From: an uncultured Alphaproteobacteria bacterium
GTDB lineage: Bacteria; Pseudomonadota; Alphaproteobacteria; Rhizobiales; Kaistiaceae
Assembly (NCBI GenBank): GCA_963822975.1
Contig: CAWGJV010000027.1
Span: forward strand, 8,885-72,884
Reading direction: 5' to 3'
DNA length: 64,000 bases
Under the pieces are notes generated by a model that saw nothing but the letters and a program-made list of their open reading frames with translations, did no database searches and had not been told where the DNA came from. The position numbers and the translations under genes are program-made. The number at the start of each line of letters is the position of its first letter. Within the stretch, counting starts at the first letter, position 1. Of this stretch, positions 17,032-21,974 are shown piece after piece.

Positions 17032-17635
17032 TCAATCCGGCTGTATTGCGATCAGGTCGATCAGCGCCGACATGCCGGTATGGGCGGCACCTTCCTCAAT
17101 CACGGCGTCATAGGACCGCAGCGCTTCAATGCGCATGCCAGCGAATGCATCGCGCAGCATTGTCTCGGTGTAGAGATGCGAGGCGTCCCTTGGGCCGCCG
17201 GTGCCATACTCAAGCTGTTCGACCCGGTAGCCCTCCAGCAACAGCAATCCACCGGGCTTCAATGCCTCTCTCAATTGGCGGAAGAAAGTCGGACGTTCGC
17301 TCTCCCTGACGAACTGAATGAAGATCGCGACGACCGCGTCGTATGCGGCCACCGGCCAACGCCATGCGATCAGGTCGGCCTGCTCGAAAGTCAGCGTTAC
17401 GCTCCGCAACTGCGCAAGACGCTTCGCCTTTTCGATGGCAACCGCAGATCCATCGACAGAGTGAACCACGGCTCCGCGCTCGGCGAGGAACACGCCGTTT
17501 CGGCCCTCGCCGTCGGCGACAGCGAGCACGCGTGCGCCCGCGCGCAATGCGGTGTGCTTCAGCCGCGAGGAACGCATTGGGCCGATCCCCGAAAAGGAAG
17601 CCATCCGCCGACGCATAGCGATCGTCCCAATTCAT
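17032..17635 (-). pseudogene. Class I SAM-dependent methyltransferase, 1 frame disruption
   Basis: The N-terminus MNWDDRYASADGFLFGDRPNAFLAAEAH (frame of ORF 17210-17647) joins ..ARVLAVADGEGRNGVFLAERGAVVHSVDGS.. (SAM-binding motif I) and ..LKPGGLLLLEGY in ORF 17032-17616. The switch is near 17560. Confidence 0.65.
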
Positions 17636-17747
17636 GACTCTCTCCACGTGCGCGAGTGGCGATCACAGGCCGAGGGCCGAGGTCGCCAAGATGAAGAGGA
17701 TTTGCCCCACTTCACTGCGGCGACGTTGGTGCGCCGCGCCTGTCCGC

Positions 17748-20700: not shown

Positions 20701-20993
20701 AGCCGACGGTAGCGCTCCGGCGCTTCGTGCGTGGCGACCGGAAAAGCCGCACCCACGGAAGCGACAGCGAGAATGGTGATGAGCGCCTCCGGTCCGTCCG
20801 GCAAGGCAACCAGGACCGGATCGCCGGCTCCGACACCTGCATCGCGGAGCCGCTGTGCCAAGCGTCCGATATGCTGGTGGAGCCCGTCGTAGGACAGGGT
20901 CCGGCCATCGACGCCCATGATGGCCGGGGCTGCGCCGCGCTCAGCCGCAGAGGCCGCAAGCCATTCCGGAATGAGGCTCGGTGCGGCGGTCAT
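17748..20993 (-). CDS. NRPS-like stand-alone module: adenylation - carrier (T) - thioesterase - TPR repeats
   Basis: Intact 1081-aa ORF. The A domain (aa 1-505) has [43 protein letters not shown] and [10 protein letters not shown]. The T domain has [14 protein letters not shown] (Ser566). The TE domain (aa ~620-815) has [10 protein letters not shown] and IPGDHES. Residues ~865-1078 are helical TPR-like repeats ([45 protein letters not shown]..). There is no condensation domain. Confidence 0.8.
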   Translation of the reverse strand: [1081 protein letters not shown]

Positions 20994-21974
20994 GCCGTCA
21001 GCGAGACCATGATCTGGCGCTTGCCCTTGAACGGCCGACGGCCGTGGGCAATCGCCTGATTGTCGACCACCAGAACATCGCCCGTGCGCCAGGTGAACAG
21101 CGTCTCCTCGGCGGCCAGCACGTCCACGATTGCGCGAATGTCTTCCTCGGGGATCGGGCTGCCGTCACCGAAGTATGCCATCTTCGGGTAGTGCATCGGA
21201 TCGGCATAGGTGCGGGCGAGCGCCGCTGCTGCGACGGGGGGCAAGCTGCCCGGGTGAAAGTTGCTCGCCTGGTTTCCCCAGTACCGCCGGCCGGTGACCG
21301 AGTGGGTGCGGATCGACGGCGCGCGCATGATGACCCGCAGACCGCCCTCGGCGGTCCACTCGAACTCCAGCCCCTTCGCGCGGATGCGCTCCTCGACCTC
21401 CTCGCGATTGTCGCTCTGGTAGGTCTTCTGCCAGGAATTGCCGAAGCCTTGTCCGCCGTGAAGGTTCATGACGTACATCAGGTTCTTCTCGGCGAAACGG
21501 CCGACGAGTGCGGGATCGAGACGGTTGAGCACCCGGCGCATATCGCCGAGCGGCGTCTCCCCGCCGCTCTCCGGCGGGAATGCGCAACTGAACCAGACGA
21601 CTTCGGGGATGGCCTCGAAATAGGTCGCTTCGCAATGCAGCGGAATCGACGCCGACTGCGCGTACTCCGTCGAGGTGAAGACCTCGCCGGCGATGCGCGA
21701 ACGGGGCGAACCGCCGCCCACATAGGAATAGGGTTTGCCGTTCAGGGACCGGACGACCGCGCTGAAACCGGCAGCATCGCCGACGTCGAAGCCGCGGAAG
21801 AGCAGCGCTCCCTTGTCGTAGAAGCGCTTCGAGGACCGCTGTCTGATGCTCGCCGATCAGTTCCGCCAGGCTGCAATTCGCGCCCGGCTCAATCAGCGCC
21901 GCCAGACTTGTCTCGACCGAGCCGAATGAAGACGGGAATTCGTCCTGGCGACGATTGGACTCCGATCGCGGCAT
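20990..21974 (-). pseudogene. TauD/TfdA (clavaminate-synthase-like) Fe(II)/2-oxoglutarate dioxygenase, 1 frame disruption
   Basis: The C-terminal 243 codons are contiguous, with ..SIPLHCEATYFE.. (HxE) and ..VVDNQAIAHGRRPFKGKR.. (distal His plus Arg). The N-terminus MPRSESN..AELIGEHQTAVLEA joins FYDKGALLFRGFDVGDAAGF.. after a switch near 21825. The stop overlaps the next start (ATGA, 20990-20993). Confidence 0.75.

Follow-up and report, generated by a model that had tools for sequence, protein, structure and literature searches.

A 64,000-nucleotide stretch of DNA from an uncultured alphaproteobacterium of the family Kaistiaceae (assembly GCA_963822975.1, contig CAWGJV010000027.1, positions 8,885 to 72,884; referred to here as the window) carries on its minus strand a gene for a TauD-family Fe(II)/2-oxoglutarate (Fe/2OG) dioxygenase, followed directly by a gene for a 1081-aa protein in which an adenylation (A) domain, a carrier or thiolation (T) domain, a thioesterase (TE) and a C-terminal tetratricopeptide repeat (TPR) region are joined (Table 1). 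These two genes are a real, conserved functional pair: a dioxygenase gene adjoins an A-T-TE-TPR gene in 12 distinct related loci from the Alphaproteobacteria, Planctomycetota and Verrucomicrobiota. Conservation of the pair had been set beforehand as a refuting test of the initial annotation of this region, which had proposed a carrier-tethered amino-acid tailoring system, and the pair proved to be conserved. To the interpretation that the two genes constitute a self-contained cassette resembling a nonribosomal peptide synthetase ('NRPS-like'), in which a small acid tethered to the carrier would be oxidized in trans and then freed by the thioesterase, we give about an even chance.

The paired loci are L001, L002, L004 (of which L014 is a duplicate), L006-L011, L013 and L073, together with the disrupted locus L015. 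The dioxygenase gene lies directly upstream of its partner, and co-directional with it, in L001, L004 and its duplicate, L006 (Rhodovibrionaceae A322), L007 (a metagenome-assembled genome, MAG, labelled Kuenenia), L008 (Paracoccaceae), L009 (Chthoniobacteraceae), L010, L011 (Planctomycetaceae), L013 (Verrucomicrobiales) and L073 (plasmid pLA6_008), and in all ten of these co-directional loci the junction is either an overlap of 1-4 nt (ATGA, GTGA or TAATG) or a gap of at most about 25 nt. The ATGA overlap reported for the window by the initial annotation is likewise plain in the sequence. The pair is divergent in L002, of which L003 is a second record. In L015, the Crocosphaera watsonii WH 8501 chromosome (3450-15151), the dioxygenase gene is broken into two pieces separated by about 1.9 kb and the large gene into four or more, a fragmentation of both genes that is consistent with disruption by an insertion element. 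An all-against-all comparison of the open reading frames (ORFs) of 13 loci returned no third conserved gene, the extra clusters being antisense shadow ORFs, and the genomic context is different in each locus (nicotinate catabolism, polysaccharide synthesis, ABC transport, TPR proteins), which argues that the unit is autonomous and mobile.

On the 102-kb plasmid pLA6_008 of the cultured marine Paracoccaceae strain La 6 (CP031593.1), the pair is intact (8998-13274; dioxygenase QEW24065.1, large protein QEW24066.1), is surrounded by nicotinate-catabolism and molybdoenzyme genes, and bears the labels 'trimethyllysine dioxygenase' and 'long-chain-fatty-acid--CoA ligase'. In L004, an alphaproteobacterial MAG, a 781-aa PhyH-methyltransferase fusion that is absent from the other loci is encoded just upstream of the pair (4430-6775), and glycosyltransferase and GDP-sugar genes surround it.

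The dioxygenase gene is found where the large protein carries a TPR region. Pfam confirmed TPRs in the eight dioxygenase-paired homologues scanned, and for the other three TPRs are listed among the precomputed domains; an adjacent dioxygenase gene accompanies every TPR-bearing homologue (12 of 12), and none was found at three TPR-less A-T-TE relatives (P0026, P0029 and P0032) or at a locus encoding an A-T-C protein (C, condensation domain; L012). This pattern of 12:0 versus 0:4 is the sole evidence for a functional link between TPR and dioxygenase, and our preferred reading of it is that the TPR region docks the dioxygenase.

The ORF for the large protein (17748-20993) is intact, and the initial annotation of it, as a 1081-aa protein with adenylation, carrier (GGDS, Ser566), thioesterase and TPR regions, was correct. 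Pfam places AMP-binding at residues 14-366 (5e-57), AMP-binding_C at 422-497, PP-binding at 542-600 (4.9e-14), Thioesterase (PF00975) at 657-729 and TPRs at about 858-1023. Across an alignment of 20 family members the P-loop Gly170, A8 Arg405, A10 Lys497 and carrier Ser566 are invariant, as are Ser696 (GYSATG) and His802 (GDH) of the thioesterase, and Asp723 is at least 90% conserved. One polypeptide without a condensation domain therefore holds an A domain, a carrier with its conserved serine and a thioesterase with a Ser696/Asp723/His802 triad. The A-T-TE-TPR family is rare. A homology search found about 19 proteins of this architecture, the best of them only 45-53% identical to the window's protein (P0241), whose cluster in the clustered protein collection has a 37-aa fragment as its representative; the protein itself is for this reason invisible to the search and its top match is seemingly only 53%. 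When the TE-TPR half was searched exhaustively against 1.84 billion representatives, only 61 matches were obtained at E<=1e-30, about 30 of them full-length proteins of roughly 1000-1250 aa.

The A domain appears to be of the acyl-CoA-synthetase type, resembling oxalate-CoA ligase most, and not of the NRPS amino-acid type. Its NCBIfam ranking is headed by PRK06187 (248 bits), FadD7 (242) and malonyl-CoA synthase (193), while it reaches only 154.7 bits against the amino-acid adenylation model TIGR01733 (cut-off 317.4); all of its NCBIfam matches lie far under their own family cut-offs. The best match in the PDB is the oxalate-CoA ligase AtAAE3 (200 bits, E 3e-58), and the oxalate-CoA ligases are followed by feruloyl- and fatty-acyl-CoA synthetases, FadD13 and MatB, with NRPS modules at about 157 bits. 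The A4 and A8 motifs are also of the CoA-ligase type, and an FHxHG-type A4 and an RGGEKI A8 motif are common to the A domain and the oxalate-CoA ligases AtAAE3 and LsOCS (PDB 5IE0 and 6QJZ). The A4 region reads MPYSHLHG, compared with LPLFHVHG in AAE3, and His212 occupies the position of the amino-binding Asp of the NRPS A4 motif, which we take to be Asp235 of PheA. With acyl-CoA ligase models well ahead of the amino-acid model and a His in place of that Asp, the 'amino-acid' label of the initial annotation finds no support. The same annotation held that its proposal would fail if the A domain grouped with acyl-CoA ligases that do not load the adjacent carrier; half of this is true, namely the grouping. 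A related A domain (about 33% identity, with an oxalate-type pocket) forms the first A-T unit of an A-T-C-A-T-TE synthetase, a loading position that points to a lineage able to feed a fused carrier.

The oxalate pocket of AtAAE3 comprises Val215-His216, Cys288-Ser289, Ala313-Met314, His319 and Lys500, of which Ser289 and His319 are oxalate-binding residues conserved only in oxalate-CoA ligases (PMC8905533). The equivalents in the A domain are Leu213-His214, Ser286-Asp287, Gly310-Val311, Pro316 and Lys497. Pocket residues are near-invariant throughout the family, which implies one defined substrate, and in the family alignment Asp287 (for Ser289) and Pro316 (for His319) are invariant in the TPR clade. 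Because of these two replacements we rejected an identity as oxalate-CoA ligase; AAE3, moreover, differs in having no carrier, thioesterase or TPR. An Asp where the distal carboxylate of oxalate binds would argue against a dicarboxylate and may hint at a cationic or hydrogen-bond-donating group on the substrate, and the smaller Gly, Val and Pro would leave a roomier pocket. The substrate may be an amino-bearing short acid, and the term 'amino acid' could in that case be correct on non-canonical grounds. TPR-less relatives and the first A domain of the A-T-C-A-T-TE synthetases mostly keep the Ser and His (…RSSSASLP…, …TEAAHQM…), and with these oxalate-type residues in its relatives the TPR clade looks like a substrate-switched offshoot of an oxalate-type lineage.

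Both of the oxalate-specific residues of AtAAE3 are kept in P0019, P0021, P0023, P0026, P0029-P0031, P0037-P0042, P0046 and P0049 (loci L075-L077 and L081). These TPR-less A-T(-TE) proteins and first A domains may be oxalate-loading carrier modules, of which we know of no description.

The dioxygenase scores 122.7 bits against Pfam PF02668 (cut-off 27, E 3.3e-35), and His113 and Glu115 (HxE), His310 and Arg312, numbered in the frame-repaired protein described below, are conserved in all 18 aligned sequences. The HxE...H triad marks the protein as an oxygenase, not a halogenase. Its closest solved structures by sequence are two proteins of the same fold subfamily, At3g21360 (PDB 1Y0Z; 148 bits, 34% identity) and the sulfoquinovose dioxygenase SqoD (PDB 9YUT; 106 bits, 28% identity). 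Among annotated plasmid records, the best match is the dioxygenase of the same gene pair on the La 6 plasmid, and four of the matches after it (36-38% identity), which were inspected, proved to be genes of NRPS-type clusters labelled TauD/TfdA or 'syringomycin biosynthesis'. Three of the four SyrP-like genes inspected (from Azospirillum, Klebsiella, Burkholderia and Methylosinus) adjoin NRPS genes and three of the four adjoin MbtH genes. A neighbour-joining tree of 18 sequences, which carries no support values, gathers the 12 paired dioxygenases into a monophyletic group, with the NRPS-embedded SyrP-like enzymes as its sister and not enclosing it, and with At3g21360 and SqoD outside both. Identity as a true taurine/sulfonate dioxygenase was rejected, since E. 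coli TauD is missing from the four PDB sequence matches of the dioxygenase at E<=0.01 and SqoD is distant and outside the clade. The initial annotation had made its proposal depend on the enzyme not clustering with such dioxygenases, and its nearest annotated relatives are indeed SyrP-like.

The Klebsiella gene is carried by the conjugative IncFII plasmid pKPN-8c6e of Klebsiella pneumoniae (L078, 3795-10406), where NRPS genes are followed by the SyrP-like dioxygenase gene and then by a phenylacetate-CoA-ligase-family gene and a class V aminotransferase gene, their reading frames all overlapping; this is unusual cargo for a clinical plasmid.

These results bear on the simplest alternative, that two unrelated housekeeping enzymes, a sulfur-scavenging taurine/sulfonate dioxygenase and a fatty-acid-CoA ligase, are neighbours by chance, as the automatic public names 'taurine dioxygenase', 'trimethyllysine dioxygenase' and 'long-chain-fatty-acid--CoA ligase' would have it. 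Chance adjacency is scarcely credible given adjacency with overlap across several phyla, the TauD and SqoD comparisons, and a 'ligase' that carries a carrier domain, a thioesterase and TPRs and stays far under every NCBIfam cut-off.

Tailoring of a carrier-tethered substrate is the most economical logic for the two genes because the pair is conserved and the nearest annotated relatives of the dioxygenase are SyrP-like enzymes in NRPS clusters. In the proposed sequence of events the adenylate-forming (ANL) domain would adenylate a specific small carboxylic acid, probably neither oxalate nor a standard alpha-amino acid recognized in the NRPS manner, and would load it on its own carrier, at the phosphopantetheine arm of Ser566. 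The product of the translationally coupled upstream gene, a SyrP-like Fe/2OG enzyme likely docked on the C-terminal TPR domain, would then oxidize, and most likely hydroxylate, the tethered acyl group in trans, and the thioesterase would release the product, most simply by hydrolysis to a free hydroxy acid.

The order of the first steps could also be reversed, with the dioxygenase hydroxylating the free acid, the A domain then activating and loading it, and a TPR-guided thioesterase passing it on or releasing it. This order is just as compatible with the conserved pairing and overlap, and among solved relatives the nearest, At3g21360 and SqoD, have substrates known or likely to be free; the closest annotated clade, however, is the NRPS-embedded SyrP type and not a group of free-substrate enzymes, and to tether a finished acid only to hydrolyse it again would be a futile cycle without an acceptor, for which no conserved gene was found. 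We consider this order improbable. Somewhat more improbable still is that the thioesterase is an acyltransferase and the TPR region binds a macromolecular acceptor (protein, peptide or glycan) that receives the (hydroxy)acyl group. In its favour, TPR domains bind proteins, glycosyltransferase and sugar-nucleotide genes surround the pair in one locus, and in another three further TPR proteins are encoded next to it; yet the context differs in every locus, no acceptor or third gene is conserved, and the TPRs could equally bind the dioxygenase.

Several points weigh against oxidation on the carrier, the reading that we prefer. The function of every family member is read from sequence alone, and TPR docking from co-occurrence alone. 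The A domain groups with CoA ligases and might form a CoA thioester instead of loading the carrier. Some superfamily relatives of the dioxygenase, namely SqoD, AsnO and VioC, work on free substrates, the last two by hydroxylating them. The initial annotation stated that the window contains no condensation domain, MbtH or phosphopantetheinyl transferase, and tblastn searches of the 64-kb window with queries from other loci, which are of limited sensitivity, indeed gave nothing significant for a condensation domain, MbtH or an Sfp-type phosphopantetheinyl transferase; the want of a nearby transferase counts against this reading. Finally, the dioxygenase gene is interrupted in this genome, and this copy may be dead.

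That interruption is a +1 frameshift. The window has a GC content of about 67%, and its real genes have a strong third-position GC (GC3). The initial annotation was right about the family and facial triad of the dioxygenase, and about the downstream gene for an S-adenosylmethionine (SAM) methyltransferase, here assigned to class I, and overlooked a frameshift in both genes: the spans that it gave, 20990-21974 (985 nt) and 17032-17635 (604 nt), are each 3n+1. The shifts lie at about 21821-24 in 'gcgCTTCtac' and at about 17533-45 in 'gcgcgcgggc', and the longest intact ORFs are only 243 aa for the dioxygenase and 194 aa for the methyltransferase. The 243-aa ORF opens at GTG 21721, the first usable start in the second frame, and is 84 residues short at its N-terminus; the same truncated protein appears in the public protein collection on an 89.5-kb contig, which indicates that the frameshift belongs to the deposited assembly. 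Removing one base at about 21821-24 restores a 327-aa dioxygenase in which AVLEAL runs on into YDKGALLFRGF, colinear with 12 homologues (L001: ...AVLTSLYQAGALLFRGF) and 59% identical over its full length to the homologue in L001. In the methyltransferase gene the frame changes after the first 33 codons (MNWDDRYASADGFLFGDRPNAFLAAEAHRIARG).

The same kind of damage is seen in genes that have nothing to do with the pair. The SBP_bac_5 gene (14051-15804, minus strand) matches profile positions 3-35 in 15139-15804 and 130-349 in 14051-15016, with at least two shifts near 15000-15150; the N domain of the DUF2207 gene (25536-27405, plus strand) falls in 25536-26099 and the C domain, in another frame, in 26104-27405; and the two domains of the flagellin gene (36682-37936, minus strand) are split between 37142-37936 (N) and 36682-37320 (C). 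With the methyltransferase and dioxygenase genes, this makes five frameshift-split genes within about 24 kb, and since one of them is a flagellin gene inside an otherwise intact motility cluster, an indel error of metagenome assembly is considerably likelier than a real pseudogene. Same-strand overlapping open frames elsewhere in the window are mostly separate genes with long upstream open frames, not frameshifts, and ORF-based readings of the window need care. Programmed frameshifting in the dioxygenase gene was rejected, there being no slippery motif at 'GCGCTTCTAC' and unrelated genes being broken likewise. We think it rather unlikely that the frameshift is real and the cassette a decaying remnant in this genome, its 243-aa product inactive without the first 84 residues. 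The shift is present in the deposited contig, gene callers found the truncated ORF, and the adjoining methyltransferase gene is broken too; on the other side stand the unrelated genes (at least three) split alike within 24 kb, a GC3 that remains high across the breaks, as for assembly indels, and the long contigs, named in the style of a long-read assembler, on which the nearest relatives of a neighbouring ABC-F protein lie, as far as the names can tell.

As an A-T-TE protein with an adjacent oxygenase the pair resembles the NikP1/NikQ system of nikkomycin biosynthesis, in which an A-T-TE protein and a trans-acting oxygenase reportedly make a free beta-hydroxy amino acid. In both, one A-T-TE protein without a condensation domain would activate, tether and release a monomer, and the tethered intermediate is the proposed substrate of an oxygenase encoded next to it. 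NikQ, however, is a P450 and not an Fe/2OG enzyme, and NikP1 has an amino-acid-type A domain and an MbtH-like domain, is not known to carry TPRs and belongs to a large cluster, whereas the A domain here is of the acyl-CoA-synthetase type and the pair stands alone. The proposed logic also matches that of SyrP, which is reported to act on a carrier-tethered aminoacyl group. SyrP and the stand-alone Asp beta-hydroxylases of NRPS siderophore and lipopeptide clusters share with our dioxygenase the TauD subfamily, the HxE...H triad and the Arg, at the 36-38% identity given above; they lie beside multimodular NRPSs with MbtH and condensation domains, whereas the paired clade is separate and always accompanies a single A-T-TE-TPR protein. 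KtzO/KtzP and DdaC, Fe/2OG enzymes reported to act on carrier-tethered Glu or fumaramoyl-DAP, are precedents for Fe/2OG oxidation in trans of substrates on a thiolation domain; they work within multi-gene antibiotic pathways, and the likeness lies in the described chemistry. The substrate of SqoD, in contrast to the one proposed here, is a free sugar, in which the enzyme breaks a C-S bond. In a rule-based cluster finder the region would probably come out as 'NRPS-like'. The pair is set apart by the oxygenase class that accompanies its A-T-TE protein, its CoA-ligase-derived A domain, the fused TPR, the absence of a surrounding cluster and its spread over several phyla.

The methyltransferase gene, about 110 nt downstream of the large ORF, had been placed in the cassette by the initial annotation and does not belong there: no homologue of it occurs in any of the 12 related loci, and once repaired its 200-aa product matches stand-alone methyltransferases of alphaproteobacterial plasmids over the full length (50-54% identity). 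It and the neighbouring LacI-family regulator gene (15892-17010, plus strand; methyltransferase 17032-17647, minus strand) have a GC3 of about 0.73-0.75, compared with 0.81-0.90 in their neighbours, and may be more recent acquisitions. The motility cluster occupies both strands of 32924-50881 and includes, besides the split flagellin gene, genes for a MotB-like protein (32924-34246), FlhB (44792-45883), FliM (47413-48492), MotA (48353-49273), a DUF1217 protein (49374-50153) and a rod protein of the FlgF/G type (50084-50881). The ABC-F protein, at 72-74% identity, puts the organism close to Bauldia (Hyphomicrobiales), and its closest relatives are on metagenome contigs. Scans of the whole window for tRNA genes and Rfam families gave nothing.

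Table 1. Positions in the window of the dioxygenase and A-T-TE-TPR genes, their parts and the adjoining methyltransferase gene.
Feature	Position	Strand	Evidence
TauD-family dioxygenase, N-terminus (51 codons, separate frame; alternative ATG at 21986)	21822..21974	-	MPRSES...AVLEAL matches homologue N-terminus (L001 ...AVLTSLYQAGALLF)
+1 frameshift, one extra base in 'CTTC'	21821..21824	-	Repaired frame colinear with 12 homologues
TauD-family dioxygenase, C-terminus (276 codons, YDKGALLFRGF...), with facial triad and Arg312	20990..21820	-	PF02668; 63% identical to L001 partner
ATGA stop/start overlap of dioxygenase and A-T-TE-TPR genes	20990..20993	-	Read directly in the sequence
Sigma-70-like promoter match (TTCACG-16-TATGAT with TG) upstream of dioxygenase start	22010..22037	-	Consensus scan only, weak
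Adenylate-forming (ANL) domain, acyl-CoA-synthetase type by sequence, residues 14-497	19503..20954	-	Pfam, NCBIfam, PDB match
Carrier domain (peptidyl carrier protein type), residues 542-600; Ser566 at 19296-19298	19194..19370	-	Pfam PP-binding 4.9e-14
Thioesterase domain, about residues 620-830; Ser696, Asp723, His802	18504..19136	-	Pfam PF00975, family alignment
C-terminal TPR region, about residues 855-1081	17751..18431	-	Pfam TPR_19, TPR_14, TPR_2, TPR_8
Class I SAM methyltransferase, +1 frameshift at about 17533-17545, outside the conserved unit	17032..17635	-	Pfam Methyltransf_25

The trans-acting oxidation of a carrier-held substrate is well known from antibiotic and siderophore pathways. 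Here this logic has apparently been cut down to a gene pair that travels as a unit through several phyla and onto a plasmid, outside biosynthetic clusters. Full-text searches of the literature found no description of the dioxygenase/A-T-TE-TPR pair, nor a described precedent for an A domain of CoA-ligase ancestry, for a TPR fused behind a thioesterase or for the strict co-occurrence of dioxygenase and TE-TPR. A bolder proposal, which we hold only tentatively and think more doubtful than the cassette itself, is that the pair is a horizontally mobile, undescribed minimal pathway in which the TPR behind the thioesterase would bring a dedicated Fe/2OG dioxygenase to a small acid held on the carrier, perhaps a short one with an amino or ammonium group, selected by an A domain from an oxalate-activating lineage in which both oxalate-binding residues have been replaced. 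Such a pathway would yield, by a route not known so far, a hydroxylated metabolite in free form (an osmolyte, signal or chelator), and its TPR would represent a novel type of domain for recruiting oxygenases that act in trans. As annotations, the names now assigned automatically, 'taurine dioxygenase', 'trimethyllysine dioxygenase' and 'long-chain-fatty-acid-CoA ligase', are misleading. Since cultured carriers exist (Paracoccaceae strain La 6 and, apparently, Rhodovibrionaceae A322), the question is directly testable, and the identity of the substrate would define a new small-molecule product and test TPR domains as platforms for the recruitment of tailoring enzymes.

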